Part shown: positions 34-19,058 of the stretch, in pieces
Layout of the letters: every line of letters starts with the position of its first letter
Position numbering within the stretch: the first letter of the stretch is position 1
Source of the DNA: Promethearchaeum syntrophicum
GTDB lineage: Archaea; Asgardarchaeota; Lokiarchaeia; Sigyniarchaeales; Promethearchaeaceae
Assembly: GCF_008000775.2 (NCBI RefSeq)
Contig: NZ_CP042905.2
Span: 4,292,195 to 4,324,194 of the forward strand
DNA length: 32,000 nucleotides
Reading direction: 5' to 3'
Program-made: the position numbers and the translations under genes
The notes under the pieces: generated by a model
Seen by the model: the letters and a program-made list of their open reading frames with translations, nothing else
What the model was told of the DNA's origin: nothing
Databases searched by the model: none

Positions 34-3000
34 ATGGCATTAATCGATAATTTGATAATAATTCTCTATAGTGTTGTGGGATTAAGCACATTTTTATTTG
101 GATTCTCATTAGTTTTTAAAAATCTGAGAAAAATTAATCGAATCGAAAGAGAGAAATTTGATTTAGGTGATTGGCTTGCATCGATCGGTTTTGGTGTAAT
201 GTTTACTCTCGCAATTTTATTTGCATTAAATCTTTCAATAGAATCTTTTATTATAACAGAGGATCCACTCCCTTCAATTGCTGGATTTTTATTAGTAATT
301 ATGATCGGAATACTCCTTATCTATCCACTATGGGAAGTGATATTTTTAGGAAGGCCTACAGCAGATAGTGTTCACGATTTTCATAAATTTCTGGAATCGA
401 GAATATTAGATAGATTTAAGGGTAAAATGGCATATTTAGTTTCTTTCGGAATATTTATTGTGATTTACATAATTCCTGTTATTGTTTTCACTCTTCTATT
501 AGATTATTCTTTTATAGAAATCCTTTTTGTATGGTTCTTATTATTCCCTCTATTCTTTTTAAACTATTTTGCAGCAAATGGAATTGTATCTGCAATTTTA
601 CAGACAAGTTTTAGAAAAACCATCTCATCGGACATAATAGAAGCGAGTAATACTGGTAAAAATACGAAAAAGATGATCATAAATGTATTTGTTATGATGA
701 TAACTTGGCTTCCTTTTCTTCTCAATGCTTATAATATAGCTAATCCCATCATAAGGGCAATTAATGGGTATGAATTACTTGAAAAAGATCCAATTATGGG
801 TATAATTTCATTAGTTACAACCGTTCCTCTAGGAATTAAGGGTTTCTTCAACAAATTCTGGAATAAAAAATCAAAAACAAAGACAATTGATTTCTTATTC
901 AGTGGTTATATTTTTATTGCAATTGGAATTAACATGTTGATAAATTTCTTCCAAATCAATGAAGGATTAGTTGTTTCAGTTTTTAGCCAAGTAGGATTTC
1001 TCTCTTCACTTAGTGCAATTTTCTCAGATTATACCCTACTTGTTCCAATTATTGTGATTCAAAGTTTAATTACACTTGTTTATGGATTGATTATCTTTTT
1101 CCAAAAAAATTCAGATTTTCACTCTGATATTCGATTAAGGGCAACTTCAATCGCATTTGGAATTAAAGATCTTGATGATTTAATCAAAAAGGATGATCCG
1201 GGGGCAAAGAAAAAGAGGAAAGAAAAAGAAAGAAAGTATGATTATTTAACTTTATATAAATCTCTTTTACTTCCACCAGTTTTCTCAAAATATGGAGTCG
1301 ATCTTAACGAACAGGTTAGATTAAAAGCGCGACAGTATCTTCTCCTAATAAGTATTAATAGTACAGAACACGCTCAAAAAATTGTTGATTTTGTTTTTGA
1401 GACTTCAATCGATCCTAAATCTTCAGTGAAATTCAAATATTCCAAATACTCAGTAAAGGAAGCTATTAATTTGTTGGGGGATATCGGAAAGAAATATCCT
1501 GAATTTGTGATGACTCGAATGATTGAAGCACTACCCGAATCCGATATTCAGATTCAGAGGTATATTTTAGATGCCTTAGGAGATATAGGTGAAAAAAAGG
1601 AGAATTTAATTGTAATATTAGATGAAATAGAACCATTATTGGAAAGCACACGCTATGAATTAAGAACGGCTGCATTTCAAGCAATTTCAGAGATGGTTAT
1701 GGAAGGATCCAATGATGACAAGGAATTTATTCAGATAGCACTGAAGAAAGTTTACGAAATTTTATCTGAATGTTATAAAAATCCAGATATAATCGATACT
1801 GCAATGGAATCTTTAGTGCAAATGAGTGCAAGAATTGCGAATGATTTAGATATATCTAAAATAATTCCGTTCATTCATTATTCTGAAGGCAAAGATAAAG
1901 ACACCAATGATTATATTATACAAAATGCGATTATTGTTCTGGGTTATATGGTATATTATAATATTGATACGTTTCCGTTAGAAGATATTAAAAATTACCT
2001 TAAGGATAAAAGGAATTTTATTAGATATGTTGCATGTGATGCTATCGGCAATTTTATTTTAAAATGTCCTGATAACTTCAAAGAATCTCTATTAGTAAAT
2101 TTGATGATTATATCTCTTTATGATGATGACGATGATGTATGTGAGATGTGCACTGAGAGTATTACAGAATTTTTAGTTTTGAATAAAAATTATGAACCGA
2201 TAATTGATGGTCAGAAAATCTCTGTTTTAAATTATTATTTAAAGGCCCTATCGAGTTCAGAACGAAAAATTGCAGAAAAAGCTAGCGAAGCCTTAAAATC
2301 AATCAGTCCACTTTATGAGGAAAATATTTATCCCCAATTAGAAGAAATCATCAAAAAACAAGAAAACTTGGAATTAGTTAGGGATAGTTTACATGTAATT
2401 GCGCTATCTGGTATTGAGGAGCACCTTAGTGTTGATTTAAACTTGATATATGGATTAACTGAACATACTGATGCAAGTGTGCGTTCAGAAGCAGTCTATA
2501 CATTAGGGTTACTCTCAAAAAATAGGACTGATATAGATGAAAACTATATTATAAAACTAATCGATGATCCCGATCCCCAAGTAAGAAGTCAAACAATTTT
2601 TGCATTGGGAAAAATAGGTATAAATAAACCTGATAAAGTAATTCCGATATTGATTCAGGGATTCTTTGAAATCGATAGGCAATCAGATGATAAAATAAAC
2701 GAAGTTGAATTATTTGCTGAAAGTTTAGGATTAATTGGAGCTGAGCACCCATCAAATGAGATTATTGTTTCTCTTCAAAGTGGATTGATGGGGGACTCGA
2801 ACCCTTTCACTAAAGATGTTATGGCTCATGCATTAGGAGCAATTGGACACGGTATGATCCGCTCGGGAAATGCAACGCGGAGAATAGAAAATGAAGCATT
2901 TTACAATAGTGTTAGTTGGTTACGAAGTCAAAGCAAAAAAGAATATACTATCGGAAATCTAGTTATTATTTTCATTGAAGCATTGCAATTAAAATCCATT

Positions 3001-3564
3001 CCAAATTCAGTCATGGATGAAATATCAGATTCAGTTCAAGATCTTTTACCTGTCTTCTTATTTGTTGACGAAGATGAAAGAAAAAAGAACAGAATCTTAA
3101 CAACCATTAAAGAATTACTTGCTCAAGCATATTATAGTAATTACAATAATGAAATTCTCGAAAATATAGATAGAATAGATAGTTTAATAAGCTTTAAACG
3201 TAGTTTCGAGACAGACTTAACATCTCTTCAGGAACAGTTCATTTTCTTTAGTAAACAGTACACAAGTGACGGAAAACAGTTTTATGACCAAGGTAATGTC
3301 TTTTTGCAATTAGTTAAGAAAGAGGAACCTGAATTCTATGATTATGCTCTTCGTTCTTTTGAAGTCGCGATCGATTTAGCTCCATTTGAATTTTTTACAC
3401 CTAATTGTTTATTGCAAATGGCAATTATTTTGGAGCATAAAGGGGAACATTTGGAAGCGAAGAAGAAATATGAAGAAGCTTTAGAAATTTTCAGCAGTTT
3501 AGATGAAATTGAAAAAATGAAAGAATGTGAACAAGCACTTACTTCTATTCAGCAACATCTTTAA
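34..3564 (+). CDS. Large membrane-anchored HEAT-repeat / TPR protein (polytopic N-terminal domain, soluble repeat domain)
   Basis: An uninterrupted 1176-aa ORF. A GGAGGAGG Shine-Dalgarno-like motif at 18-25 lies 8 nt upstream of the ATG. Residues 1 to ~370 are consecutive hydrophobic helices. Residues ~470-900 carry recurring HEAT/PBS-lyase-like units ('RYILDALGDIGEK', 'DASVRSEAVYTLGLL', 'DPDPQVRSQTIFALGKIG', 'FIRYVACDAIGNF'). The C-terminal ~100 aa look TPR-like ('YDYALRSFEVAIDLAP', 'EAKKKYEEALEIF'). Confidence 0.7.
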   Translation: MALIDNLIIILYSVVGLSTFLFGFSLVFKNLRKINRIEREKFDLGDWLASIGFGVMFTLAILFALNLSIESFIITEDPLPSIAGFLLVIMIGILLIYPLWEVIFLGRPTADSVHDFHKFLESRILDRFKGKMAYLVSFGIFIVIYIIPVIVFTLLLDYSFIEILFVWFLLFPLFFLNYFAANGIVSAILQTSFRKTISSDIIEASNTGKNTKKMIINVFVMMITWLPFLLNAYNIANPIIRAINGYELLEKDPIMGIISLVTTVPLGIKGFFNKFWNKKSKTKTIDFLFSGYIFIAIGINMLINFFQINEGLVVSVFSQVGFLSSLSAIFSDYTLLVPIIVIQSLITLVYGLIIFFQKNSDFHSDIRLRATSIAFGIKDLDDLIKKDDPGAKKKRKEKERKYDYLTLYKSLLLPPVFSKYGVDLNEQVRLKARQYLLLISINSTEHAQKIVDFVFETSIDPKSSVKFKYSKYSVKEAINLLGDIGKKYPEFVMTRMIEALPESDIQIQRYILDALGDIGEKKENLIVILDEIEPLLESTRYELRTAAFQAISEMVMEGSNDDKEFIQIALKKVYEILSECYKNPDIIDTAMESLVQMSARIANDLDISKIIPFIHYSEGKDKDTNDYIIQNAIIVLGYMVYYNIDTFPLEDIKNYLKDKRNFIRYVACDAIGNFILKCPDNFKESLLVNLMIISLYDDDDDVCEMCTESITEFLVLNKNYEPIIDGQKISVLNYYLKALSSSERKIAEKASEALKSISPLYEENIYPQLEEIIKKQENLELVRDSLHVIALSGIEEHLSVDLNLIYGLTEHTDASVRSEAVYTLGLLSKNRTDIDENYIIKLIDDPDPQVRSQTIFALGKIGINKPDKVIPILIQGFFEIDRQSDDKINEVELFAESLGLIGAEHPSNEIIVSLQSGLMGDSNPFTKDVMAHALGAIGHGMIRSGNATRRIENEAFYNSVSWLRSQSKKEYTIGNLVIIFIEALQLKSIPNSVMDEISDSVQDLLPVFLFVDEDERKKNRILTTIKELLAQAYYSNYNNEILENIDRIDSLISFKRSFETDLTSLQEQFIFFSKQYTSDGKQFYDQGNVFLQLVKKEEPEFYDYALRSFEVAIDLAPFEFFTPNCLLQMAIILEHKGEHLEAKKKYEEALEIFSSLDEIEKMKECEQALTSIQQHL

Positions 3565-5129: not shown

Positions 5130-5229
5130 AATCTCTTCCCCCTAAGACATTAATTCAGTTATACTCCATTTTTTATTTACCATATTTTTAAATATATCAA
5201 TTAAATAAAGAGGATAGGAGAAGGAGTAT

Positions 5230-6495
5230 TTGAACGATCAAGACCCGAAATTGCGGACAAAAATCAATTCTGAGCAAAATATATCAAATAAAGAAGAATT
5301 TCCTTCAGAATTAAGACAAGAAAAAGTGAACCATTTTTCCGCTTCTATAGATAATTCTAATCAAGAATTCTCAAGAAATTTTATTGTTCCTTTAAACGGT
5401 AAAGATAATCAAATAAAAAATGTTCAAGATTTCTTTTCACAATATGGAGAAATCAAAAATCTATTACAATTTAATTTAGATAAAATAGAAAAGCACAATG
5501 AAAGAAATGGTGAAAAATTGGAAATTTATGATAACTTAGGGAAAATATCAGGAAAAATTCTTATAAAAACACCGAGAAATCATGAAATTCAATTATTTCT
5601 TCAACAATTCTCATCTACAAATTATTGTAAATTATATAAAATTAATATATATAGACTTCTTGAGAAAATTAATAGAAATATTATTTCTTTGAAAGAAGAA
5701 TTGATTAGATTTTTTATATTAAAAGATTTTCCTGAACCTTTTATTATTTTATTTCCTCTGGATGAGCTAGAATATTTCTCTCAAGAAGAAATCGTTCTCT
5801 TGTATTCAATATTTAAAATCACAGATAATTTTGCACCGATTTCATTAGGGGGATTATTTTTATTCGTCTCTTCACTAAAGCAAAATTTGCCACATGAGTT
5901 TAACAATTTCTTTGATTTAGAAGTTAATGTAAAAATACCAGATATACAGAGCAAAAAGCGCTTAATAGAATCAATTTTAAAGAATATTCCGAATAATAAT
6001 GTTGATATCGATCATTTTTCATTACAAGTAAAGGATTGGAATGTAGCATCAATTAGAAAATTCATTATTTTTGCTTATAGATACTTTCAAATTAATCAAA
6101 AAGATGATTTAACAAGTAAAATGAAGTTTAATACCAAATTTCTTAGCGATTTAATTGAAAATAATTCAATAAATTTCAGAAACGATATTTCTTTAGATAA
6201 AAAAAACGCAATACAGATTAATAATACAATAAATTCTCAACCTAAATTATTAGATTCAGGTAAAAAATTAAACCAAAACTTAGAAAACCAATTATATCAA
6301 GAATCTGCTTCAAAAAATTATGAGGATTTATGCATAATATTAGATAAAATTCAAAAAGGGATTGTTCTTTTGCCATTTGAAAGGCAAACACTAGCAGATA
6401 ATTCCTTTATTCTAAAAGAAGACCCACAAAAAGCCTTGCAAAAACTAAATAAAGCAAAATCTACCGTTGATAAGTTTAAAAAGATTATTTCTTAA
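5230..6495 (+). CDS. Hypothetical protein with a degenerate AAA+ ATPase-like core (Walker A lost)
   Basis: A 421-aa ORF with a TTG start preceded by the purine-rich 'gaggataggagaaggag'; there is no in-frame Met for ~290 codons. The middle of the protein aligns by eye to a classical AAA module. 'GKILIKTPRNHEIQLFLQQF' sits where G-PPGTGKT-LLA would be. 'FIILFPLDELEYF' resembles Walker B. 'VNVKIPDIQSKKRLIESILKNIP...VDIDHFSLQVKDWNVASIRKF' resembles the AAA lid (IEIPLPD..R.EIL..H......VDL..LA..T.GFSGADI). It lies 25 nt upstream of the SMC gene on the same strand. Confidence 0.5.
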   Translation: MNDQDPKLRTKINSEQNISNKEEFPSELRQEKVNHFSASIDNSNQEFSRNFIVPLNGKDNQIKNVQDFFSQYGEIKNLLQFNLDKIEKHNERNGEKLEIYDNLGKISGKILIKTPRNHEIQLFLQQFSSTNYCKLYKINIYRLLEKINRNIISLKEELIRFFILKDFPEPFIILFPLDELEYFSQEEIVLLYSIFKITDNFAPISLGGLFLFVSSLKQNLPHEFNNFFDLEVNVKIPDIQSKKRLIESILKNIPNNNVDIDHFSLQVKDWNVASIRKFIIFAYRYFQINQKDDLTSKMKFNTKFLSDLIENNSINFRNDISLDKKNAIQINNTINSQPKLLDSGKKLNQNLENQLYQESASKNYEDLCIILDKIQKGIVLLPFERQTLADNSFILKEDPQKALQKLNKAKSTVDKFKKIIS

Positions 6496-6520
6496 ATTAT
6501 TAATTTAACACAATTTTAAA

Positions 6521-9500
6521 GTGAATACTATGACCGAAATGAAAGGATTGGCAGAAAACATTGAAAAAACTAAATCAATGGAGTTATCCCCAATTCTAGA
6601 TGAGAAAAAAGAGGTCATAAAAGATTTTAAAAATAAGATCAAATTAGAAAAAATTATTTTAGAAGACTTCATCTCATTCGATTATAATGAAGTAATATTT
6701 CATCCTGAATTTACAATCATTACTGGTCCTAATGGTGTTGGCAAATCTTCAATATATCATGCTCTTAAATTTGTACTAGGTTCTAATGATTATGATGGAC
6801 GATATAATAAATGGTCTAATTTTATTAGAACAGGACAAAAATATGCAATTGTAACTCTTTACTTGCAATTCTCTGGAAAAAAATATTGTCTTAAAAGAAC
6901 CGTTTTTAAGGATAAAGCCCCAAAATTTTCTTTTCAAGGTCCAGATGAAAAAGAATTTCACGATGTTTCAGCAAAAAAGATTCAAGAATTTGTAGATAAA
7001 ATTGGTATTGATCCTGACCATGTGTTCTCATTTATGTCTCAAGGTAAAATTGGATCTCTTAAAAATTTTAAAGATGAAGCCTTGTGCACATTTGTGGAAA
7101 AAGGATTAGGACTTAATATTCTTAGAGAAAATATATTAAGTCAAAAAGAACGAATAATTTATTTAAAAAAGGAATTTTCTGTGTTAATTTCACAACGAGA
7201 CAGTATGAAATATCAACTAGTTGAATTAGAACCTAAATTAAAACGTTTAGAGAAAAAAAGATCTTTGCTAAGTAAATTAGAAGGGTTAGATAATGAGCTA
7301 TTATGGGCACAAAAAGAAGATATTATAAAACAAATTGATGTATATCGCGATCAGATTCATTTTAAAGAAAATTCAATTAAAGATCTTGAATTAAATATCA
7401 GTACTCTTCAAGAAGAAGAAAACTCCATTGAAGAGAATTTGAAACAAGAAAAAGACGAATACAAGATTACAATTGATATTTTTGCACAAAAAAAAGCGCA
7501 TCTTGAAATTTTAAAAAAAGAAATTAATAAATGGACCTCTGAAAAGAATCAAATTGCTGATAAAATCGAGAAAATATCTAAAGATATAGATAAATTACAG
7601 TTAGATATTAATAAACAAGGTTTTGAGCTTAAATCTTATCAAAAGAGCATGGATGATTTGAAAACCTTAACTGGAGAAGCAAAACTTTTATTAAAATCAT
7701 ATGAAGATGAGGAACGCTCTTTAAATAAAAAATTCATTAAATATCGGGAAATATTGTTTGAATTTGATTCAAAAACACAAATAGTTTCAAATTTAGAAGA
7801 CAATTTGAAAGAAATAGAAGAAAGTCATAACAAAAAGGAATCAGAAATCAATGAAAAAGCCAAGGAAATTCAAAAAATCGACCATGAATTGAAGGATTTC
7901 AAATGGTTTATGGAAAATCCAAAAAAAGATTTACAAATTAAAATGAAAGCTTTAGTAGAAAAATATCAAAAATCAATAAATATCTTCAATGACGATTTAG
8001 TACAATTACAAATTCAATATAAAACATTAACAAGTGAGATAGAACGCGTTAAACAATCTGTTCATGATAAAAGCATGCCTAAACCAAAATCCATAATATC
8101 CATGATGGATGAAATTAAACAGAGGAACATGCAAAGTATTGGTCCGTTGATTGATTATATAACTTTTGATCCTTTATATCAAATGGCGGTTGAATCAATC
8201 TTTGGTTCAAGAGTCTTATATAGTTTCATTGCTAAAAATCATGAAGAATTTGCCCTACTTAAAAATATGGCTCAAAGATATAATGCAAGATGTAATCTAT
8301 ATTTAGAAAAACAAAAAAACCTAACTCCTTTACCTTCATTGAATGATTCTCAAGAAATGGGAGTATTTGGGTATTTAGCAGAAATAATAAAACCTACAAT
8401 CCCGGAACCTGCAATTCAAAAAGTTATTCATTCCGTAGCAAGTATAACACTTGTTGTTAAGGATCATATTGCTGGAACTAACTACACTCAAAAATTTAAA
8501 TCCAGAAATTGGATTGTAACCTTAGATGGAGAACAATTAAGACCGAAAAAATTTGTTTTAGAAGCGCGTCCTTATATTTCAAATAATAAACAAAAAATTA
8601 CAAGTGTCTCTCAGGCAAAAATAATATTAAATGAATTAAACGAAAAATCTGAAAGAAATCGTCATAATTATAATAAGCGAAGTTCAGATCTACAAAACCT
8701 TAAAGAAAAACATAAGAAAGTATTGAAAGATTTAGCACAAATTGATGTCCTATTAGTAAAATATAAACAAAAGGAAATAACTACTAAGGTTAAAAACGCT
8801 CTAATAAATGAGAGAGAGAAAAATTATACTAAAATTCAAGAAAAAAAGAAAAAGATTGAAGTTATTAAAAAAGAGATCGAAATTTTGAAAGAAAAATTAC
8901 CCGATGATTCAATATTAAATCATGATCGACTAACTCAACTACCAAATTTAATAGTTACTCAAAAAAATAAGATAACAGAATATGAATCTAAAAAAGACAT
9001 TAATATTCAGCAAATAAATGATATAAAAATTAAGGAAAATCTTCTTTCAAATGAAATAAATGCAAAAACAAAAGAAAAACAAGAGATAATTTCGGATTTA
9101 ACTTCTCAAGATAAACATTATTATGATCTCATTCAAGAAAATATCAAATTAACAGGTCAAATTAAAAACATTAAAAATGAAATTGAAGAGAGCAACACAA
9201 AAATCACTTCCTTAGAATTGGAAGAAAAAAAGATTTCTGAAGAAAAAAATCAACTGTTAATTCGGAAGGCCACGTTGAAAAATTCGATCGATGATATTAA
9301 ATCCTACATTGAAGAGAAAGAGAAGAAAATTGAAAGAATTAGCAATATTTTAAAGGAGATCAAAGAAAAAGTTTACCCAAAGCGTCCAATCATCGAAATT
9401 CAAAATGATATCGAAGAAATAAATAAAATCTTGAGATCTTATTTCGATGTAGATGAAAATATCATATTAGAAAAACAACGAATTGAGGATTCAATAAAAA

Positions 9501-10072
9501 AAATATTAGAAAAGCAAGAAACATCAGATAAAGAGATAAAAGCAGCAAAAGAAGCAGAATTAAAAATTGAACAAAACTATCTTAACAAATTCGAAAAATC
9601 TGTAGATATTTTAGAAGATCTCGTAAATAAAAAATTAAAATTTACCCAAACTGATTTTAATGTGAATTTAAATTTAGAAGGGGAAATTGAAGAATTTAAA
9701 TTAACAATTAAAGCCGTTTCAACAAAAAATCAAAAAAATGTTCGTCCTTTTACAGCTTTGAGTGGTGGGGAACAATCTATGGTTGGAATTAGTCTAATGT
9801 TATCATTGCACTATTTTAATCCTTCTCCTTTCAATATCTACGATGAAATTGAAATGTTTTTGGACAACCTAAACGCAGAAATCATCGCAAAATTAATCTT
9901 CGAAATTACAACAAGTGGAATTCAATGCATTTTAATAATGCCAGATTCTTCCATTTCAATATTATATTATGCAAATAAAGTCATTGGGATTAGTAAAAAT
10001 GGAACCAATGGTTCATCAACTGTGCATTATGCCAAGGCGCGAAAAAATTCTAATTTCCAAACTCTTAATTAG
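6521..10072 (+). CDS. SMC-family chromosome-organisation ATPase with hinge; head motifs resemble Smc5/6
   Basis: Walker A 'GPNGVGKS' (6725-6748). Q-loop-like 'FSFMSQGKIG'. Very long Lys/Glu-rich coiled coils. The central hinge-like region has 'IGPLIDYITFDPLYQMAVESIFGSRVLYSFIAKNHEEFALLKNMAQ' and 'ITLVVKDHIAGTNY...WIVTLDGEQLRP'. Signature motif 'LSGGEQS' (~9758-9778) and Walker B/D-loop 'FNIYDEIEMFLD'. 'ILIMPDSS' occupies the usual H-loop position. The start could be GTG 6521 or ATG 6530. Confidence 0.88.
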   Translation: MNTMTEMKGLAENIEKTKSMELSPILDEKKEVIKDFKNKIKLEKIILEDFISFDYNEVIFHPEFTIITGPNGVGKSSIYHALKFVLGSNDYDGRYNKWSNFIRTGQKYAIVTLYLQFSGKKYCLKRTVFKDKAPKFSFQGPDEKEFHDVSAKKIQEFVDKIGIDPDHVFSFMSQGKIGSLKNFKDEALCTFVEKGLGLNILRENILSQKERIIYLKKEFSVLISQRDSMKYQLVELEPKLKRLEKKRSLLSKLEGLDNELLWAQKEDIIKQIDVYRDQIHFKENSIKDLELNISTLQEEENSIEENLKQEKDEYKITIDIFAQKKAHLEILKKEINKWTSEKNQIADKIEKISKDIDKLQLDINKQGFELKSYQKSMDDLKTLTGEAKLLLKSYEDEERSLNKKFIKYREILFEFDSKTQIVSNLEDNLKEIEESHNKKESEINEKAKEIQKIDHELKDFKWFMENPKKDLQIKMKALVEKYQKSINIFNDDLVQLQIQYKTLTSEIERVKQSVHDKSMPKPKSIISMMDEIKQRNMQSIGPLIDYITFDPLYQMAVESIFGSRVLYSFIAKNHEEFALLKNMAQRYNARCNLYLEKQKNLTPLPSLNDSQEMGVFGYLAEIIKPTIPEPAIQKVIHSVASITLVVKDHIAGTNYTQKFKSRNWIVTLDGEQLRPKKFVLEARPYISNNKQKITSVSQAKIILNELNEKSERNRHNYNKRSSDLQNLKEKHKKVLKDLAQIDVLLVKYKQKEITTKVKNALINEREKNYTKIQEKKKKIEVIKKEIEILKEKLPDDSILNHDRLTQLPNLIVTQKNKITEYESKKDINIQQINDIKIKENLLSNEINAKTKEKQEIISDLTSQDKHYYDLIQENIKLTGQIKNIKNEIEESNTKITSLELEEKKISEEKNQLLIRKATLKNSIDDIKSYIEEKEKKIERISNILKEIKEKVYPKRPIIEIQNDIEEINKILRSYFDVDENIILEKQRIEDSIKKILEKQETSDKEIKAAKEAELKIEQNYLNKFEKSVDILEDLVNKKLKFTQTDFNVNLNLEGEIEEFKLTIKAVSTKNQKNVRPFTALSGGEQSMVGISLMLSLHYFNPSPFNIYDEIEMFLDNLNAEIIAKLIFEITTSGIQCILIMPDSSISILYYANKVIGISKNGTNGSSTVHYAKARKNSNFQTLN

Positions 10073-10082
10073 GAGGATTTAA

Positions 10083-10763
10083 ATGTCCAGACTTATTTCA
10101 CTGCTAGAACGAATAAGTTTTTTGAAAAATCAAGTTCTAATGGGAAAAAAAACATTACTTGATGAAGATTTGGAATCTTTATTTATTGAATTTAAGGATT
10201 TAATTTCAGAATCTGAATTAGAGACCAGTATTCAGATTATGGATAATGGGACTATAATTCTCGAACAGAAGCTCGAAGAATTAAGGAATTTCATATCTAA
10301 TATCTCTCAAAAAGATCAAATTCTTGAATATCTTAGAAATTCTTCCTCAGATGAGTCCTTTTCTCAAATCTTGAATAAAACGTGGCAATCCCCTTTATTG
10401 TTACCTAATTTTTCACTATCATTTTTAACGAAAAGCTTTGAACGGCTTGTGCTAAACAAAAAATCCACTAATTTAGAAATGTTTTTTAAAGAAAAACCAA
10501 TTCTTGGAGTCCCTGACATAAAAGAACTCCCTGAAATTGATAAACCTTATAAAATAAAAATGCTTGGGTATCTAAATTTGATTCGACCATTATTACCTGC
10601 TACTTTAGAGGAACTTATTGATAGAAACCATTCTATTGATGTATATTATGAAAATTTCTCTTATATCCTCCATTTACTCCAACTCGGATTTTTATCGTTC
10701 ACGAAAAAAACTCAACATTTTGATATTACAAATAAAAAAATAGAAGGCAAATTTGATGAATGA
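10083..10763 (+). CDS. Kleisin-like protein (ScpA/Nse4-like), probable SMC partner
   Basis: AGGAGG at 10071-10076 precedes the ATG, which lies 10 nt after the SMC stop. The C-terminal segment 'ATLEELIDRNHSIDVYYENFSYILHLLQLGFLSFTKKTQHFDI' matches the pattern of the ScpA C-terminal winged helix (...v.tFLAlLEL.k.g.i.l.q...f.I). The position between the SMC gene and a ScpB-like gene supports the call. The N-terminal kleisin helix motif is not clearly recognisable. Confidence 0.5.
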   Translation: MSRLISLLERISFLKNQVLMGKKTLLDEDLESLFIEFKDLISESELETSIQIMDNGTIILEQKLEELRNFISNISQKDQILEYLRNSSSDESFSQILNKTWQSPLLLPNFSLSFLTKSFERLVLNKKSTNLEMFFKEKPILGVPDIKELPEIDKPYKIKMLGYLNLIRPLLPATLEELIDRNHSIDVYYENFSYILHLLQLGFLSFTKKTQHFDITNKKIEGKFDE

Positions 10764-11313
10764 ATATACAATTTTACTGTATTTATTGACTCGAACAAAA
10801 CAAGGAAATTCTAATGATAAATTTGAAATTATTGGGGCTTCAGAAGAAGAATTATGTGATAGTTTACATTTTACAGGGAAATTTACGAAAATCCAATTGC
10901 ATGAACTTATGGATCAATTTTCAAAATCTATTTCAATCTTTAATCTCCAACTAAAACAAAATCCGTTTAATTTTCGATGGTATTTAACCCAATCATCTGA
11001 AATTGAAGAGTTTTTCAGTTCAAATCCATTTAGTGGAAAACCAAGAATAGCCGCAACACTTTGTACGGTTCTTTCTTTATGTATGACAAATAATGGAAAA
11101 ATAGATATCAATTCGGTTCGGAAAATAAGAAATAAGAAGGATATCAGAAAAGATTTGCAAGAATTGGAGAAATTAAACTTCATAAATATGGAAAAGAAAA
11201 GCAATCTAATATCTATTAATCCTTATTTGGGGTATTTTATGGATATCGAGGGTTTTTTGAATATACTTGAAAATGAAATAAGAAAAAAGAATATAGAAAA
11301 TGTTGATGAATAA
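10753..11313 (+). CDS. ScpB/KITE-like tandem winged-helix protein
   Basis: Overlaps the previous gene by 11 nt. Two winged-helix-like halves are visible. The first is 'YTILLYLLTRTK...EEELCDSLHF...FNLQLKQNPFNFRWYLT' (compare ScpB ...GLELVEVAGGYRLVT). The second is 'PRIAATLCTVLSLCMTNNGKIDINSVRKIRNKKDIRKDLQELEKLNFINMEKK..LISINPYLGYFMDIEG' (compare ScpB LS.AALETLAIIAY.QPIT..EIE.IRG.....VL..L.E.GLI......Y.TT..FLEYFGL). Confidence 0.5.
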   Translation: MMNEYTILLYLLTRTKQGNSNDKFEIIGASEEELCDSLHFTGKFTKIQLHELMDQFSKSISIFNLQLKQNPFNFRWYLTQSSEIEEFFSSNPFSGKPRIAATLCTVLSLCMTNNGKIDINSVRKIRNKKDIRKDLQELEKLNFINMEKKSNLISINPYLGYFMDIEGFLNILENEIRKKNIENVDE

Positions 11314-11391: not shown

Positions 11392-11739
11392 ATGGGAATG
11401 TTTTCTCGCAAAAAAAAAAAAGAATATACTCATTTTACAAAAAGGTTAACAAATTCAATATATATCAAACAGATAGCAATACATTCAAATAGTGATTTTA
11501 CAACTTTAAAGCATAATTTATTAGACGGACATATTATGGTATGCGATTTAACCCCCCTCGTTAGAATTGCAAAAGGATTACATGGTTCAAAAGAAGGAAA
11601 TAAACATATATTACATAATCAACTCCAGCAAATTAAAAAATATTGCCTCCAGCATGGAGGAAATGTTACTAAATTAAAGGAAAGTATATTATTGATTACT
11701 CCAAATATAAATTTCAAACTGCAGAATTTTATTAAATAA
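11392..11739 (+). CDS. sepF: SepF-like cell-division protein (FtsZ membrane anchor family)
   Basis: The N-terminus 'MGMFSRKKKK' resembles the SepF membrane-targeting helix. 'YIKQIAIHSNSDFTTLKHNLLDGHIMVCDLTPL' aligns to the SepF core (vvv..p.s..da.eia..l..g..vivnL..l). 'QLQQIKKYCLQHGGNVTKLKESILLITPNINF' aligns to (Ri.DFl.G..yal.G.i.ki.e.iflltP.nv.i). Confidence 0.5.
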   Translation: MGMFSRKKKKEYTHFTKRLTNSIYIKQIAIHSNSDFTTLKHNLLDGHIMVCDLTPLVRIAKGLHGSKEGNKHILHNQLQQIKKYCLQHGGNVTKLKESILLITPNINFKLQNFIK

Positions 11740-13746: not shown

Positions 13747-16245
13747 TTATAGAATATTTTTAAAATCTTCAATTATTTTCTTACTATTTTTTTTATTGCC
13801 CGAATTATTTAATAAGTTTCTAATTTTTTCTTCAATTTCATTTGATATTTTTTTCCCACCCCGAACGGAAGGTTCAAAATTTTGAATGTAATCTACCATA
13901 TCATCAGGGAGATCATAGATTTTACCCAAAATAATGTCACAAATATCGATAATATTTTTCATTTCCGAAGTGTTAAACCTGCGGTGTTCCTTATCAAAAC
14001 ATTGCATGAGTGATTTCATTAAAAAGGAAGAAAATTCTTTAAGAAGGTCAAAAAATGTCTTTAATTTATCTACAAGATCTTGAGAAAGGGGAAAAGCTTT
14101 CATTATATCAGAATTCATGTGCCTTCCATCACTATAAATTCTAAACCATACGTAATACAGTGAACTGTTAATTAGAATTAAGATAAAATATTTCAACCCT
14201 TCTATATTTCTTGATATTTCTACCAGTGCAATCTGCGTTCCATAATAAGGTGGTTTTTCCCAAGCATTATACCAATAATTTCCTGATATTCTAACGGATA
14301 TTAAATCTTCAACCTTTTTTCCTTCTTTCTCAAATTGCATCAATTTATTTCTATACTCATCAATATTTCTAATAATTAAGAATCTGTTTAAAATATCGCC
14401 TAAAATTAGTAATTTTTCATTAGAATTTAGAGTATAATGTTCTGAGAGCAACTCCAAAAATTCTCTTGCCCTTTTTTCACCTATTTTGGGAAGTCTGTGC
14501 TTTTTATCAAAAGAAACTCCTATATTTTTTCCTAATAGAAAATTATTAGCCAGTACATATTTAATATTTCGAAGATCTGGCATTTTTCTAAACATATTTG
14601 TTGTCAGAATGTCTGAAAATTGATTTTTATTTAATTTTATGGAATTCTTGTTTATACATTGAATAATTGAAACAGATTGTGTCATTTTGGTAAAAAATCG
14701 GCATTTATCTCTGTCAAAAGATGCAATTTTACTTATTTCATAGGAATTTACGATTTTTTGGCGCGTTTTAGAAAGATCTTTACTAAAACATATAGCATAA
14801 CTAGTTAAAAATGCAATTATACCTTTGTTTCGATTGAGATCAATGGCCCGTTCAATGAAAACTGACGAAATTTCATTCAAGAATGAATAAAATGGATCGA
14901 TTTCTTTTTTCTCAGAATTTGAAAGTAAATTTCCATACGGAGGGTTTCCTAAAATAATATCAAATCCAAAATTATTCGAGTTAATTGGAAAAACATCTGG
15001 AAATTCAACATTCCAATGAAAGGGTTTAATTTTGGTATTCTTTTTTATTTCTTTGGTATCTTTTTCACTCCAATTAATAGAACCTAATAAAGAATTTCCT
15101 GTGAGAATATTTAATCTCAATAACCTAGGATTCAAAAATCTTGAAGATGAAAAATCCCATGAATCAATATAATTTAGAAAAAGTCTAATTTTCGCAATAA
15201 TTACAGCGCGTGGATTAATATCTACTCCATATATAGCTGACGAAAATAAAAATTTCTTTAGAATGGCAATGGAATCTTTAAATTTTTCAAAGGAGTTTAA
15301 ATCTATTATCTCATCAGAAACTGTTATTAACAATACTCCCTTAATTTGGTAATTTCTTGATGCCGTCCATATATATTTGTATAATTTAATTAATATTTTT
15401 GTTATACTAGCTAGAAAATGCCCAGATCCAACAGCTGGGTCCAAAATTTTAAAATTATTAATCTTTACAAAAAAATCTTGAATTTTATTAAGTTTTAACT
15501 TAAATTCATATTGATCTAGTTCTGATTTAAAGAAATTCTCACAATTTATCCAAAAAGGAACTTTTAAATTATCTGAAAACAATTTGGCATTTAGACTAGA
15601 TTCAGCAAGGAAATCACAGATATTATCCGGAGTATAATATGCCCCCGTTGATTTTTTAGTGTCATCTGATAAAATTTTCTCAAACAGAGCTCCAATGATA
15701 AAATCATTAATTGGACCCCCCACAATTTCCTGCAAGATGAACATATTAAATAATGGAAGTGAGTTAATTATTGATTCAGGAATTTTTTTGGATATTTTGA
15801 TTTTTTCAAGTTGTGTACTATCAATATCTTGAAAAAATGCTTCATTTGGTAAGGACTTGTGAATAAACCCATCCCAAAGAAAACCGTGATTATCTCTCAG
15901 GAAATAATCTCCTATAATAACGAGTTCTTCTTGGTTACTATTCCTTGATATGACGGGTAATTTTTTAGAATTCGAAGGAAAAATACTATTAAAAAATTTA
16001 GTTAAGAATTCAGAATAAAATTGGTGATTTAGGGATGACTTTTTTCGATTAAAGTGATTTAAAAAATATTCAGAATCTTTATTAAAACACAGCTTTCGTT
16101 GCAAATACCAGAGAGCGGTCATTAAAAGCACAAATCTATTTATTTTTTCTGGATTTATATCTGACTTGCTGATTCTTTGCAAGTATTCGCAAGATTTTTT
16201 AAAAATATTAAAAAATGAATCAATTTTTTTATTCTGTAGGCTCAA
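13747..16245 (-). CDS. N6-adenine DNA methyltransferase, gamma class (Eco57I/TaqI-like, with C-terminal target-recognition domain)
   Basis: 'GAYYTPDNICDFLAE' (motif X region). 'ILDPAVGSGHFL' (motif I, SAM binding). 'GVDINPRAVIIAKIRL'. 'FDIILGNPPYG' (motif IV NPPY, ~14933-14949). C-terminal 'LINSSLYYVWFRIYS...MKAFPL' resembles the TaqI-like specificity domain. Only ~190 aa precede the methyltransferase core and I see no PD-(D/E)xK nuclease motif. The start is TTG 16245, 17 nt inside the upstream gene. Confidence 0.85.
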   Translation of the reverse strand: MSLQNKKIDSFFNIFKKSCEYLQRISKSDINPEKINRFVLLMTALWYLQRKLCFNKDSEYFLNHFNRKKSSLNHQFYSEFLTKFFNSIFPSNSKKLPVISRNSNQEELVIIGDYFLRDNHGFLWDGFIHKSLPNEAFFQDIDSTQLEKIKISKKIPESIINSLPLFNMFILQEIVGGPINDFIIGALFEKILSDDTKKSTGAYYTPDNICDFLAESSLNAKLFSDNLKVPFWINCENFFKSELDQYEFKLKLNKIQDFFVKINNFKILDPAVGSGHFLASITKILIKLYKYIWTASRNYQIKGVLLITVSDEIIDLNSFEKFKDSIAILKKFLFSSAIYGVDINPRAVIIAKIRLFLNYIDSWDFSSSRFLNPRLLRLNILTGNSLLGSINWSEKDTKEIKKNTKIKPFHWNVEFPDVFPINSNNFGFDIILGNPPYGNLLSNSEKKEIDPFYSFLNEISSVFIERAIDLNRNKGIIAFLTSYAICFSKDLSKTRQKIVNSYEISKIASFDRDKCRFFTKMTQSVSIIQCINKNSIKLNKNQFSDILTTNMFRKMPDLRNIKYVLANNFLLGKNIGVSFDKKHRLPKIGEKRAREFLELLSEHYTLNSNEKLLILGDILNRFLIIRNIDEYRNKLMQFEKEGKKVEDLISVRISGNYWYNAWEKPPYYGTQIALVEISRNIEGLKYFILILINSSLYYVWFRIYSDGRHMNSDIMKAFPLSQDLVDKLKTFFDLLKEFSSFLMKSLMQCFDKEHRRFNTSEMKNIIDICDIILGKIYDLPDDMVDYIQNFEPSVRGGKKISNEIEEKIRNLLNNSGNKKNSKKIIEDFKNIL

Positions 16246-17089
16246 TTTCTTTCAATTCAACAGGAGGTTTGTCTCTAAGAATAGTTGGTCTTGATTTTAA
16301 TCTTATCTTTTCTGCGTCAACTTCTTCTTTTTCAACGATTTCAGAGTGTTTAAAGATAGTAAATACAGAAATAAATGAAGATAAGAATATTCCAATACTT
16401 CCTAATAAGATCCAAATCCAGAATAAAATAATCTCATACCTTTGAATTAAATATAAACTTGATTCTATTGATCCTGGTTGAAATTCAAATATAAAATTTC
16501 TTTGATTCATGTATAAAACTAATCCAAGAGTAATAATAGTGCTCGACAGAGAGCATACTACTAGATAAATCTTTTGTGACCATATAGTACAAGCTAATTG
16601 CACACATGTAATCCCAAACCATATCCAAGTAATTATAATTAATCTATCAAAATAACTTGTAAATTGAGAAGCAGTTACACTATATAATATGATTTCAGGT
16701 TTTTCCCATCCAAAAATTGAAAATCCTAAAATTGGAATTAAAAAACTAAGAATTAAGATACCTATTCCAAAATAAATTGAAATTTGCATAGGAAAAGTCC
16801 TTTCAATTTTGATTATTGTATCTTCCCCGATAATCATTTCATCAATTTCAGCTTGAACCTTAAGAGGAATTACACTATCTAAGAGAACAAATTCAAACAT
16901 TTTAAACTTATTAATAATTTTGGATGCAAGATCAATTCCGATTTTTTGTTCGCGCTCTTTAGATTTTACTCCTGAATAAAAGTATACTTTCTTTTCCTCG
17001 TTATCGATTAACAACGCTATATCATGAGGGTAAAGAGTTTCAGATTCAACGAAATCGTTCTTAGAGAGATCTAAAATATATAAAAACAT
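16229..17089 (-). CDS. Membrane protein: N-terminal soluble domain (possible gelsolin/ADF-like fold) plus 4-5 TM helices
   Basis: A 286-aa ORF with an ATG start. Residues 1 to ~95, 'FLYILDLSKNDFVESETLYPHDIALLIDNEEKKVYFYSGVKSKEREQKIGIDLASKI', follow the gelsolin-domain pattern (l..v......V.....L...D.yiLd....iy.W.G..s...E...a...A..i). They are followed by hydrophobic helices ('ISIYFGIGILILSFLIPILGF', 'IIITWIWFGITCVQLACTIW', 'IYLVVCSLSSTIITLGLVLYM', 'IILFWIWILLGSIGIFLSSFISVFTIF') and a charged tail. I trust that it is coding more than the fold assignment. Confidence 0.6.
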   Translation of the reverse strand: MFLYILDLSKNDFVESETLYPHDIALLIDNEEKKVYFYSGVKSKEREQKIGIDLASKIINKFKMFEFVLLDSVIPLKVQAEIDEMIIGEDTIIKIERTFPMQISIYFGIGILILSFLIPILGFSIFGWEKPEIILYSVTASQFTSYFDRLIIITWIWFGITCVQLACTIWSQKIYLVVCSLSSTIITLGLVLYMNQRNFIFEFQPGSIESSLYLIQRYEIILFWIWILLGSIGIFLSSFISVFTIFKHSEIVEKEEVDAEKIRLKSRPTILRDKPPVELKEIEPTE

Positions 17090-17164
17090 GCTATAATTGG
17101 AATTTAGTTGTTTCTTTTGAAAAAACTTTCGCTAAATATTGATAACAAAGAAAAAAATCTAATT

Positions 17165-18064
17165 TTAGATATTTAATTTAATTTGTTTTGCTCGTGTTCG
17201 CAAAGTTACTTCGGTAACTCTGGCAATTTCACTAATTTCTGTTTGAGTTTTTCGTTCTGCTGTTGATTTAGCTGCGATATAAAGAGCCGCTGCAGCCAAT
17301 CCTTTAGGATCTTTACCCATTTTTTTTAATCCATGTTTTAATGCAGTTTTCAACATATTTGCTGCTTTTTGTTGAACTAGAACGGATAAATTCAAATCGT
17401 TTCCAAACCGGAACACAAGTGGTCCTGGTGAAATTGGTTTGTAGCGAAGATTAAGCACTGGTAAAACATTTCGGACTACTAAACCTAAGGAACGATGAAC
17501 ACTTCGTAATGGAAGCAATGCTATGTCTACTACCTCTTCTAATAAGCGCGGGAAATTATGAATTCTGATTCCGGCATAAAGAGATGCTGTCACAAATGAA
17601 TCAATGCTTCTTCCCATGGTTAATTTTTGTTTAGCAACCTCTGAATAGATTTTCCAGGCGGTTTCAAGAATATGATCCGGAATATTTAATTTCTGGGCAA
17701 GTTGGTTGATCTTTGGGCGAGCTTCCCAAAAATTACGCTCGAGTGAATTAACTAAAGAACCTTGGATTTTGGAAAGACGGTTAAACATTGCTTGTTTTTT
17801 GCCTTGAAGGGATACACCCTTTGCATCAGGTGAATTTGTACCAATTATTGTTCTGGGACCAAAGTTTCTCCATCGTGGCTCAGTTCTTTTACGATTTTTA
17901 ACTTCGTCGGCTGTATAAGCGCGTTTTTCTGTTGCTACGAACGATCTTCCTAAAACCATCCCACAATTATGGCACACTCTCATCCCATCATCGTTATGGA
18001 TAGCAGGATCACTGCAACATGGTTCATCTTCATTCTCCTTTTCGTAAAAATTTGGTATTGCCAT
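17165..18064 (-). CDS. tfb: Transcription initiation factor IIB (TFB)
   Basis: An N-terminal Zn-ribbon ('CCSDP...VCHNCGMVLG') and B-reader/linker are followed by two cyclin-fold repeats ('NIPDHILETAWKIYSEVAKQKLTMGRSIDSFVTASLYAGIR', 'LAAAALYIAAKSTAERKTQTEISEIARVTEVTLRTRAKQI'). This is the canonical archaeal TFB architecture and length. Confidence 0.95.
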   Translation of the reverse strand: MAIPNFYEKENEDEPCCSDPAIHNDDGMRVCHNCGMVLGRSFVATEKRAYTADEVKNRKRTEPRWRNFGPRTIIGTNSPDAKGVSLQGKKQAMFNRLSKIQGSLVNSLERNFWEARPKINQLAQKLNIPDHILETAWKIYSEVAKQKLTMGRSIDSFVTASLYAGIRIHNFPRLLEEVVDIALLPLRSVHRSLGLVVRNVLPVLNLRYKPISPGPLVFRFGNDLNLSVLVQQKAANMLKTALKHGLKKMGKDPKGLAAAALYIAAKSTAERKTQTEISEIARVTEVTLRTRAKQIKLNI

Positions 18065-18404: not shown

Positions 18405-18887
18405 TTACAAAAGAACAATGCCTATTCCTATACTCCCCGCTATGATAAATTCATTTAAAATTGCCCATTTTTTTTCTTTTAAATTTGGAAGCCAAGAAAA
18501 AAGGACATCTCTCACTTTATCAATGCTAGGATGAATAAGCGGATCTCTATGAAAAAACGGTCTTAAAACATACCAATCAATAATATCGGGTAAAACTGAG
18601 AAAAGCATTACCCACCAATATTTTTCAATGAACCAAATGAAGATAAAGACACTCAGGCCATAAGCATATAATAAATGGAATATCTTAAAGAATAAATCAT
18701 CCCAATGTGCTTTATATGGATGATATGTTGAAATTGCAATGCAATCTAACAAATAATGAGAAATTACTGCTAGAACAGCAATAACTATTATTTTCAACGG
18801 AATCGGAGAAGTTACTAGTAATAAATTAAGTATTTTCGCAGTAAGAATTCCAATAAGAAAGTGAGTAGACATTTGCATTTGATTCAT
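18405..18887 (-). CDS. Small integral membrane protein with His/Asp motifs (possibly a DUF457-like membrane-bound metal-dependent hydrolase)
   Basis: The ORF track begins at 18947, but its first 20 codons run through the tRNA-Thr gene. I place the start at ATG 18887 (MNQMQMSTHF...), preceded by 'AAGGA'. The protein is hydrophobic throughout, with 'STHFLIG', 'ISHYLLDC' and 'LPDIIDW' motifs. The functional call is weak. Confidence 0.5.
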   Translation of the reverse strand: MNQMQMSTHFLIGILTAKILNLLLVTSPIPLKIIVIAVLAVISHYLLDCIAISTYHPYKAHWDDLFFKIFHLLYAYGLSVFIFIWFIEKYWWVMLFSVLPDIIDWYVLRPFFHRDPLIHPSIDKVRDVLFSWLPNLKEKKWAILNEFIIAGSIGIGIVLL

Positions 18888-18901
18888 TCCTTGAATAAAT
18901 A

Positions 18902-18974
18902 AGCCAATGGTGGGAATTGAACCCACGGCATCTTGATTACGAATCAAGCGCTATAGCCTCTAAGCCACACTGGC
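18902..18974 (-). tRNA. tRNA-Thr (anticodon CGU)
   Basis: The minus-strand sequence is GCCAGTG-TG-GCTTAGAGGCTATAGC-G-CTTGA-TTCGTAA-TCAAG-ATGCC-GTGGG-TTCAATT-CCCAC-CATTGGC-T. It forms a 7-bp acceptor stem (one G-U), a 5-bp anticodon stem and a 7-nt loop with U33 and anticodon CGT. The T-arm is GTGGG/CCCAC with a TTCAATT loop. It is 73 nt with no encoded CCA. Confidence 0.9.
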
Positions 18975-19058
18975 CTTTTTGAATCTTTAATTAAACAAGA
19001 TTTCTGTAAAACTTTCTAATTAACTAAGGGAAAAAAGTATTGGGATGACCCAATATAA

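Follow-up and report, generated by a model that had tools for sequence, protein, structure and literature searches.

A stretch of 32,000 nucleotides of the genome of the Asgard archaeon Promethearchaeum syntrophicum MK-D1 (contig NZ_CP042905.2, positions 4,292,195 to 4,324,194; hereafter the window) carries an SMC gene that is followed closely by genes for a kleisin-like protein (K) and a kite protein (B), and is preceded by a further gene, X. The locus raises two questions, namely which kind of SMC complex the trio encodes, and what the product of the gene in front of it contributes. Very probably, in our assessment, the operon specifies the second SMC complex of MK-D1, apart from its canonical SMC-ScpAB-type cluster, with X most likely as a non-catalytic accessory or regulatory subunit. 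No relatives of eukaryotes closer than the Asgard archaea are known, which gives the locus its interest for how cohesin, condensin and Smc5/6 arose from one prokaryotic SMC complex. What is added here is a co-inherited pseudo-AAA partner, apparently undescribed, together with mixed subunit signals (a non-canonical SMC with a ScpB-like kite); both bear on whether SMC accessory regulators pre-date eukaryotes, and both bear on how safely the label "SMC5/6-related" can be used. MK-D1 was the first Asgard archaeon in culture, and a second one, Lokiarchaeum ossiferum, has an orthologous locus, which could bring reconstitution or localisation of the complex within reach.

The four genes are, in window coordinates:

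5230..6495 (+): gene X, DSAG12_00496, QEE14683.1; 421 aa, TTG start; putative degenerate classic-AAA pseudo-ATPase
6521..10072 (+): SMC gene, DSAG12_00497 (by position), GTDB gene NZ_CP042905.1_495; 1183 aa, GTG start
10083..10763 (+): kleisin-like K, DSAG12_00498, GTDB gene _496; 226 aa, ATG start
10756..11313 (+): kite B, DSAG12_00499 (by position), GTDB gene _497; 185 aa (186 aa from TTG 10753)

The initial annotation of the window had described four tightly packed genes on the + strand between 5230 and 11313, and the open reading frames (ORFs) that we read from the window agreed with it, with 25 nt between X and the SMC gene and 10 nt between the SMC gene and K. K and B do overlap, as it had stated, although by 8 nt (ATGAATGA) and not by 11 nt. 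The start of B is most likely ATG 10756 rather than TTG 10753, since the resulting N-terminus, MNEYT..., matches the MNEF/MNEY N-termini of the orthologues, and it is from this start that the 8-nt length of the start/stop overlap follows. The MM-start version of B was absent from a collection of 15 billion proteins in an exact look-up, though neighbouring proteins were present in it. A strong GGAGG Shine-Dalgarno sequence lies 7 nt 5' of the K ATG, and the 10-nt gap with this GGAGG and the 8-nt start/stop overlap together indicate translational coupling in the operon.

Exact protein matches identified X as DSAG12_00496, K as DSAG12_00498 (100% identity), the next downstream genes as DSAG12_00500 and DSAG12_00501, and the cold-shock gene as QEE14689.1, on the 4.32-Mb chromosome of MK-D1; with the exception of the last, these (DSAG12_00496, 00498, 00500 and 00501) are annotated as hypothetical. 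The MK-D1 SMC protein was not itself among the matches of the homologue search, the best of which was at 86%. GTDB genes _495, _496 and _497 correspond to DSAG12_00497-00499 with a constant offset of two.

The trio has a place in the literature. Van Hooff, Raas, Tromer and Eme proposed for the archaea of the TACK and Asgard groups a pair of SMC-kleisin-kite operons, of which one is condensin/cohesin-related and the other SMC5/6-related (bioRxiv 10.1101/2024.01.07.573240), a two-operon proposal that builds on Yoshinaga & Inagaki 2021 (PMC8665677). Their supplement lists P. syntrophicum _495 as an SMC5/6-related SMC, _496 as an Nse4-related kleisin and _497 as an Nse1/3-related kite; an LG+C60 phylogeny puts the MK-D1 SMC in the SMC5/6-related clade, and a separate canonical SMC-kleisin-ScpB cluster of MK-D1 comprises genes _810-_808 (bioRxiv 10.1101/2024.01.07.573240). 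This reported cluster would supply the second, canonical smc gene for which the initial annotation had recommended a search, and the MK-D1 locus is one published example of the archaeal SMC5/6-related operons, with the order SMC-kleisin-kite and in coexistence with a canonical cluster. The suggestion of an archaeal Smc5/6-like holocomplex with a new subunit therefore has to be divided: its label matches the published one, but novelty is confined to the accessory gene and does not extend to the trio. Nowhere in the text of bioRxiv 10.1101/2024.01.07.573240 does the term "AAA" occur, and we found no description of X in the literature searched, in which both the X partner and the ScpB-like character of B appear to be undescribed.

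The 1183-aa SMC protein matched Pfam SMC_N (2.3e-14), and its sequence is that expected of a full-length, ATPase-competent SMC, with these landmarks:

6725..6748 (+): Walker A GPNGVGKS, residues 69-76, followed by S77, giving "GKSS" as in TACK short SMCs
8138..8467 (+): hinge, residues 540-649; Pfam SMC_hinge PF06470, 24.2 bits against a cut-off of 22.5, 4.6e-5
9761..9865 (+): signature LSGGEQS, Walker B NIYDE and D-loop DEIEMFLD, residues 1081-1115
9929..9952 (+): ILIMPDSS at the H-loop position; P1141 invariant, family [IF][TIM]P, TACK/eukaryotic Smc5 ITP

In an alignment of 19 family members, G69, P70, N71, G74, K75 and S76 of Walker A, Q174 of the Q-loop, and S1081, G1082, G1083, D1108, E1109 and D1115 were invariant, and G541, P542, G562, G614 and G617 of the hinge were conserved; from the invariance of the ATPase motifs it follows that the SMC ATPase is under selection. 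The hinge, which the initial annotation had called genuine, scored above the Pfam cut-off, and every SMC string that it had quoted (GPNGVGKSS, NFIRTGQKYAIVTLYL, LSGGEQS, DEIEMFLD, ILIMPDSS) was found in the protein.

The SMC5/6-related placement has one serious rival, namely that canonical SMC-ScpAB gave rise, within Asgard archaea, to a highly diverged paralogue, which is the operon seen here; it would then share no specific ancestor with eukaryotic Smc5/6, and its Smc5/6-like motifs would be either convergent or ancestral. We regard this as unlikely though by no means negligible. Our reference groups were the SMCs of TACK loci L005, L007 and L009, a bacterial SMC from an rnc-smc-ftsY locus, a named euryarchaeal SMC, and yeast and human Smc5 from the PDB, and the motif states of the groups were as follows:

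Bacterial canonical SMC: Walker A GKSN; signature SGGEKA; D-loop DEIEAALD; H-loop position THR
Archaeal canonical SMC: Walker A GKSN; signature SGGEKS; D-loop DEVDMFLD; H-loop position SLR
TACK short SMC: Walker A GKSS; signature SGGER[ST]; D-loop DE[YF]DVHMD; H-loop position ITP
Eukaryotic Smc5: signature SGGER[AS]; D-loop DEINQGMD; H-loop position ITP
MK-D1 SMC family: Walker A GKS[ST]; signature SGG[EQ][QR][ST]; D-loop DE.[DEQ][MI][FY]LD; H-loop position [TIM]P (MP in MK-D1)

By these states the MK-D1 family would stand on the SMC5/6 side at Walker A, the signature and the H-loop, with a D-loop of the archaeal canonical type. GKS[ST], SGGE[RQ][ST] and a proline-containing (TP-type) replacement of the H-loop are common to the family, the TACK members and, as far as eukaryotes are concerned, Smc5, which argues against an SMC-ScpAB paralogue; the D-loop DEIEMFLD, of the canonical archaeal DEVDMFLD type, argues for one. 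The Smc5/6-like head proposed in the initial annotation agrees in part with Walker A, the signature and the H-loop proline, but not with the D-loop or with the PDB matches of the C-head described below, and its statement that the D-loop departs from the prokaryotic consensus was true of bacterial SMC (DEIEAALD) but not of canonical archaeal SMC (DEVDMFLD). The eukaryotic motifs that it had cited were compared with PDB sequences, in which yeast and human Smc5 read SGGER[AS]VST...PFRVVDEINQGMD...QYF[LF]ITPKLL.

Profile scores also placed the protein at a distance from canonical SMC. TIGR02169, the NCBIfam equivalog for archaeal SMC, aligned with it end to end (42-1168 to 2-1160), but at 181.9 bits against a cut-off of 729.4, which it missed by a factor of four, and TIGR02168 scored 172.1 against a cut-off of 567.35. 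In an exhaustive HMMER search the SMC family formed a continuum from 1694 down to ~370 bits, comprising ~30 clusters at 50% identity, and below the family the scores reached a plateau of ~180-250 bits occupied by canonical SMCs and short SMCs of 590-680 aa.

Our trees were unrooted and built by neighbour joining (NJ). On 324 head columns with 200 bootstraps, the MK-D1 family was monophyletic in 97.5% of the bootstraps, and a split of the family and the TACK group from archaeal and bacterial canonical SMC was recovered in 100%. The family never grouped with canonical SMC (0% of the bootstraps), which is contrary to what is expected of an SMC-ScpAB paralogue and answers the initial annotation's call for a phylogeny, the family not lying inside canonical archaeal SMC. 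Given that this four-group tree is unrooted, it shows that the family lies outside canonical SMC and implies no specific kinship with the TACK group; nesting with the TACK and Smc5 group was not upheld, the family forming a third lineage in the NJ trees. The identity of the C-head of the family to each other group was 21-26%, and that of its head to the TACK short SMCs ~25-27%. Such equidistance is one of the points in favour of a paralogue, as are the length and hinge, which resemble those of canonical SMC and not those of the TACK SMC5/6-type proteins of 590-680 aa. The N-head had Smc5 as its best full-length PDB match; P0274, a less diverged member of the family, matched Smc1/2/4 and prokaryotic Smc above Smc5/6, which again fits a paralogue. 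We consider the family to be, on its sequence, a deep non-canonical lineage, apparently at much the same distance from canonical SMC as from the group of TACK SMC and eukaryotic Smc5, and the term "Smc5/6-like" to rest on shared motif states and the published maximum-likelihood tree and not on overall similarity.

In the TACK loci L005 (7105-10433), L007 (9995-13401) and L009 (9980-13138) the operon encodes a short SMC of 610-681 aa together with a kleisin and a kite, and no X homologue was found there. The Pfam scan, which covered L005 and L007, gave weak Nse4_C matches for the kleisins of both and a weak MAGE match for the L005 kite. Searched against the PDB, the L007 SMC matched yeast and human Smc5 best (8e-30), and its C-head alone matched Smc5 at 1e-18 as against 6e-8 for canonical Smc. 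A 1092-aa ORF (14335-17613) lies just downstream of the L007 operon.

B is a kite by its AlphaFold2 (AF2) model, a tandem winged helix with a pLDDT (predicted local distance difference test) of 85 and a pTM (predicted template modelling score) of 0.74. In a Foldseek search all of the top 10 matches were ScpB (1.5e-4 to 2e-3), followed by MAGE/Nse3 and Nse1 (1e-2 to 3e-2), MukE and JetB; kites made up 27 of the top 30 PDB matches, the remainder being two cullin chains and one RNA polymerase III subunit. Pfam ScpB matched 7 of the 42 members of the B family (best 2.2e-6, one above the gathering score) and MAGE matched 1/42 (E 0.15), and a sequence-profile search of B against the PDB returned nothing. 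The tandem-winged-helix, ScpB-like KITE of the initial annotation was therefore well founded, and a kite of the Nse1/3 (MAGE) type was not what the Pfam and Foldseek matches indicated; with its ScpB-like kite the locus again resembles SMC-ScpAB.

For K the assignment as a kleisin depended on model architecture and gene context, and by these it would qualify. The AF2 model (pLDDT 72) has N-terminal helices at 3-74, a disordered, low-confidence linker at 130-150, and a winged helix of the form H-H-H-beta-beta at 153-215, and the position of the K gene between the SMC and kite genes is conserved in all loci; a pipeline of the Joint Genome Institute (JGI) had moreover given the name kleisin to two members of the K family. 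Pfam found no kleisin family, neither ScpA nor Nse4_C, in K and 40 members of its family, a sequence-profile search of K against the PDB returned nothing, and the Foldseek matches were all non-significant (E >= 0.39), with Nse4 (7tve_G) at rank 1 (E 0.39), RAD21 at rank 3, the ScpA C-domain at ranks 23 and 30, and many generic winged-helix proteins among them. The initial annotation's kleisin was thus sustained in its architecture, with a C-terminal winged helix in the model, but not by any significant profile match.

Several of our results weigh against the reading of the operon as an SMC5/6-related complex, and they concern all three proteins of the trio. In an NJ tree of the C-head, the TACK SMCs and Smc5 grouped at 85% to the exclusion of the MK-D1 family, which attached between that group and canonical SMC, and in PDB searches the C-head matched Smc1, Smc4 and prokaryotic Smc better than Smc5/6, so that the SMC5/6 label was not reproduced by the similarity tests carried out here. 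By the tests described above B resembles ScpB more than Nse1/3, at odds with the published "Nse1/3-related" label, and in hhalign it gave a probability of 1.8%, which is not significant, against the kites of the TACK loci, of which one is MAGE-like by Pfam. K, the assignment of which as a kleisin lacks a significant match of its own, gave 1.5%, likewise not significant, against the TACK Nse4_C-like kleisins. Set against an SMC-ScpAB paralogue, in turn, is the published work, which has the SMC as SMC5/6-related in its LG+C60 tree, the kleisin as Nse4-related and the kite as Nse1/3-related (bioRxiv 10.1101/2024.01.07.573240).

The reading of the operon as the second SMC complex of MK-D1 leaves the fourth gene to be explained. 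The pertinent regions of X are:

5551..5589 (+): P-loop remnant GKILIKTPRNHEI, residues 108-120; consensus G-x-ILI-N-x-N-P-G-T-D-I as against active GPPGTGKT, without the lysine
5737..6234 (+): second half of the AAA alpha/beta core and lid, residues ~170-335, from a HMMER alignment to CDC48A D1/D2 and column counts
6253..6492 (+): C-terminal helical module, residues 342-421; QLYQEAAS.NY.EL.IILDKL.KG..L......LA.YSFILKD.P..AL..L.KAK

Single X sequences matched nothing in Pfam, AAA included. A profile of 11 X orthologues, in comparison, matched the D2 domain of Cdc48/p97 (2e-9), p97 (~1e-7) and Vps4/CdvC (4e-6) in the PDB, the matched stretch comprising the latter half of the ATPase core together with the lid, and PADLOC gave a match of IetA (AAA) to residues 228-333 (E 1.5e-5). 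Among 74 homologues, position 119 was D in 60 and position 120 was I in 59, the equivalent of Walker B was hhhhNQ in most (P-L in MK-D1), and the sensor-1 Asn, the FD motif and the PD...R lid motif were retained, with no arginine finger before FD. Having lost, across the family, the lysine of Walker A, the acidic pair of Walker B and the arginine finger, X should be unable to hydrolyse ATP. X is on this evidence a putative pseudo-ATPase of the classic-AAA (Cdc48/Vps4-class) fold, and the initial annotation, which had called it a pseudo-AAA+ protein, was right both in the homology of the fold and in the loss of the catalytic motifs.

The most conserved part of X is the 80-residue C-terminal helical module, which has a TPR/MIT-like pattern and is carried on a variable linker; searched against the PDB, its sole match was a designed TPR (E 0.12, not significant). 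The N-terminus is variable overall, with M-[NT]-[DE]-Q-x-P...TK conserved in the orthologues, and this conserved motif supports the TTG start. Compared with Cdc48/p97/VAT and Vps4/CdvC, X shares the signature of the second half of the core and the lid (sensor-1 Asn, FD, PD...R), but it is a single AAA module in which GK[ST] has become D-I and the DE of Walker B has become N-Q, it has no arginine finger and neither an N-domain nor an N-terminal MIT domain, and it carries a unique conserved C-terminal helical module.

The company that X keeps is nearly constant. Around SMC and kleisin anchors the order X-SMC-K-B was present in 13 loci, those of L. ossiferum and Harpocratesius, nine more that were SMC-anchored, and two that were kleisin-anchored, the latter in metagenome-assembled genomes (MAGs) submitted as Hod- and Thorarchaeota (L022, L023). 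A metagenome scan anchored on X itself provided 70 loci, 52 of them with >= 600 nt and 27 with >= 5.2 kb downstream: the SMC gene came directly after X in 51/52, and the complete order X-SMC-K-B was found in 26/27 of the long loci. The gaps between X and the SMC gene were roughly 0-40 nt or small overlaps, and the linkage extended down to 24% X identity. The gene order is not due to chance, and its conservation across Lokiarchaeia-type genomes, which bears on the initial annotation's wish to see the order examined in relatives, is clear from both sets of loci. The initial annotation was also supported in its claim that the extra upstream gene has no counterpart in known SMC-ScpAB loci.

The exceptions were L046, in which the 755 nt after X held no SMC match, and L087, which had X-SMC-K with no B match; in either case this may be an assembly or threshold effect. 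P0006 and P0017, both tagged DRO88, were considered as possible paralogues in one MAG and ruled out, their synteny being the same, as for orthologues from two populations in one metagenome. L022 and L023 have near-identical neighbourhoods (SBF-HTH-DUF3795-X-SMC-K-B-...-ATP-grasp), the downstream part of which is shared by L016; this points either to unreliable taxonomic labels from the submitters or to unusual conservation of the region.

It might be argued that X is a mere conserved neighbour, for example an independent degenerate AAA protein co-transcribed for unrelated reasons, and we consider this distinctly improbable. In its favour, we saw no sequence or structural sign of an interaction of X with the SMC complex, and the wider surroundings (the HEAT protein, GH77, CSD, hydrolase and methylase genes) are syntenic in several Lokiarchaeia, so that synteny here can be inherited rather than selected; X-SMC adjacency alone could, moreover, reflect co-regulation, a further point to be set against a subunit role. 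Opposed to it are the SMC linkage in 51/52 loci and at X identities as low as 24%, the presence of X where the flanks are unrelated (L016, L018, L019, L022, L023), and the finding that X homologues occurred nowhere else among the loci fetched. The near-obligate position of X directly upstream of the SMC gene is the reason for which we take it to be, most likely, an accessory or regulatory subunit.

By analogy with Smc-ScpAB, MukBEF and Smc5/6, the complex would be built on an SMC homodimer joined at the hinge, the two heads of which would be bridged asymmetrically by K through its N-terminal helical domain and its C-terminal winged helix, with a dimer of the kite B seated on the middle of K, and ATP-driven engagement of the heads would clamp and translocate DNA. 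X is probably a non-catalytic accessory or regulatory subunit that docks via its C-terminal module; it could act as a loader, a targeting factor or a modulator of the ATPase, functionally comparable to Nse5/6 or MatP-type partners, or alternatively it could serve an active AAA unfoldase as its adaptor. All of these roles for X are speculation constrained only by gene linkage. A bolder form of this proposal, which to our minds is evenly poised between right and wrong, makes X the dedicated fourth subunit of a Lokiarchaeia-type SMC complex and the first of a new class of accessory, in which a dead Cdc48/Vps4-like module and a TPR/MIT-like docking domain control loading, ATPase activity or removal of the complex in those cultured archaea that stand nearest to eukaryotes, and it takes the SMC family to be perhaps a third, Asgard-specific lineage with a ScpB-like kite and not a straightforward Smc5/6 orthologue.

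That the four genes are instead a Wadjet/Lamassu-type SMC-based anti-plasmid or anti-phage defence system is scarcely credible, for although the architecture of four genes with SMC, kleisin and kite is like that of JetABCD, and PADLOC weakly matched the SMC to LmuB/JetC and X to IetA, those matches are generic ABC/AAA ones on which a known defence system was rejected, there was no JetA, JetB or JetD match, nothing for K and no kite-model match for B, X is predicted to be catalytically dead and has no nuclease or other effector domain, the SMC has a true hinge, and the neighbourhood is a stable housekeeping one conserved between genera and not a variable island.

Placed beside the known systems, a second SMC complex of this composition has features of each. 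With eukaryotic Smc5/6 it shares the combination of SMC, kleisin and kite (not hawk) with an extra non-SMC accessory factor, a best full-length PDB match of the N-head to Smc5, and a proline motif at the ITP position; it differs in having a single SMC gene (presumably for a homodimer) and a single kite gene, in the operon lacking a RING protein, a SUMO ligase and the Nse5/6 solenoid, in having a pseudo-AAA protein as its accessory, and in a D-loop and C-head that are not Smc5/6-like. With prokaryotic Smc-ScpAB it has in common the length, the hinge, the smc-scpA-scpB gene order seen in archaea, a kite whose nearest structures are ScpB, and the D-loop of archaeal canonical Smc, but the SMC falls short of the NCBIfam equivalog cut-off, Pfam ScpA misses K, the operon is a second one beside the canonical, and there is the extra pseudo-AAA gene. 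From the TACK members, which have SMCs of 610-681 aa, no X, and partners with weak Nse4_C/MAGE matches, the Lokiarchaeia type is set apart by its full length, its hinge, its ScpB-like kite and its pseudo-AAA protein.

The remaining features lie around the operon. The G+C content across the operon region is ~26-29%. The promoter and leader were read from the sequence letters and are given as inference only:

5187..5229 (+): putative promoter/leader, with TATA-like TTTAAATATA at 5187-5196 and purine-rich, Shine-Dalgarno-like AGGAGAAGGAG at 5217-5227, ahead of the X TTG

Upstream, at 34-3564 (+), lies a gene whose 1176-aa product combines a multi-pass membrane N-terminus with HEAT repeats. The protein matched Pfam Cnd1 (the condensin CAP-D2 hawk; 7.5e-10, above the cut-off) and stromalin SCD (1.9e-5), and its gene retains its place two genes ahead of the operon in L. 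ossiferum, Harpocratesius, L015 and L020. We rejected it as an archaeal hawk on account of its membrane N-terminus and of its PDB matches, which were only to artificial alphaRep HEAT proteins and to no hawk of condensin or cohesin; the Cnd1 and SCD matches are probably a generic cross-hit of PBS-type HEAT repeats.

Downstream, 78 nt 3' of the kite gene, DSAG12_00500 (11392-11739, +) encodes a SepF-like protein of 115 aa (Pfam SepF, E 1e-3). A profile of six of its orthologues matched the SepF-like protein 3zig in the PDB (6e-5), and a SepF-like gene follows the operon in L001, L002, L014, L015 and L020, which hints at a possible link of the SMC complex to FtsZ-based division. An 832-aa gene at 13747-16245 (-), the orthologues of which have N6-methyltransferase domains of the Eco57I/MmeI type by Pfam, keeps its proximity to the operon in L001, L002 and L017; in L016 and L018 a gene for a related methylase lies upstream of the operon. 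Finally, a 180-aa ORF (18405-18947, no Pfam match) runs at its 5' end into a tRNA-Thr(CGT) gene at 18901-18975 (-); probably either its start is wrong or the ORF itself is spurious.

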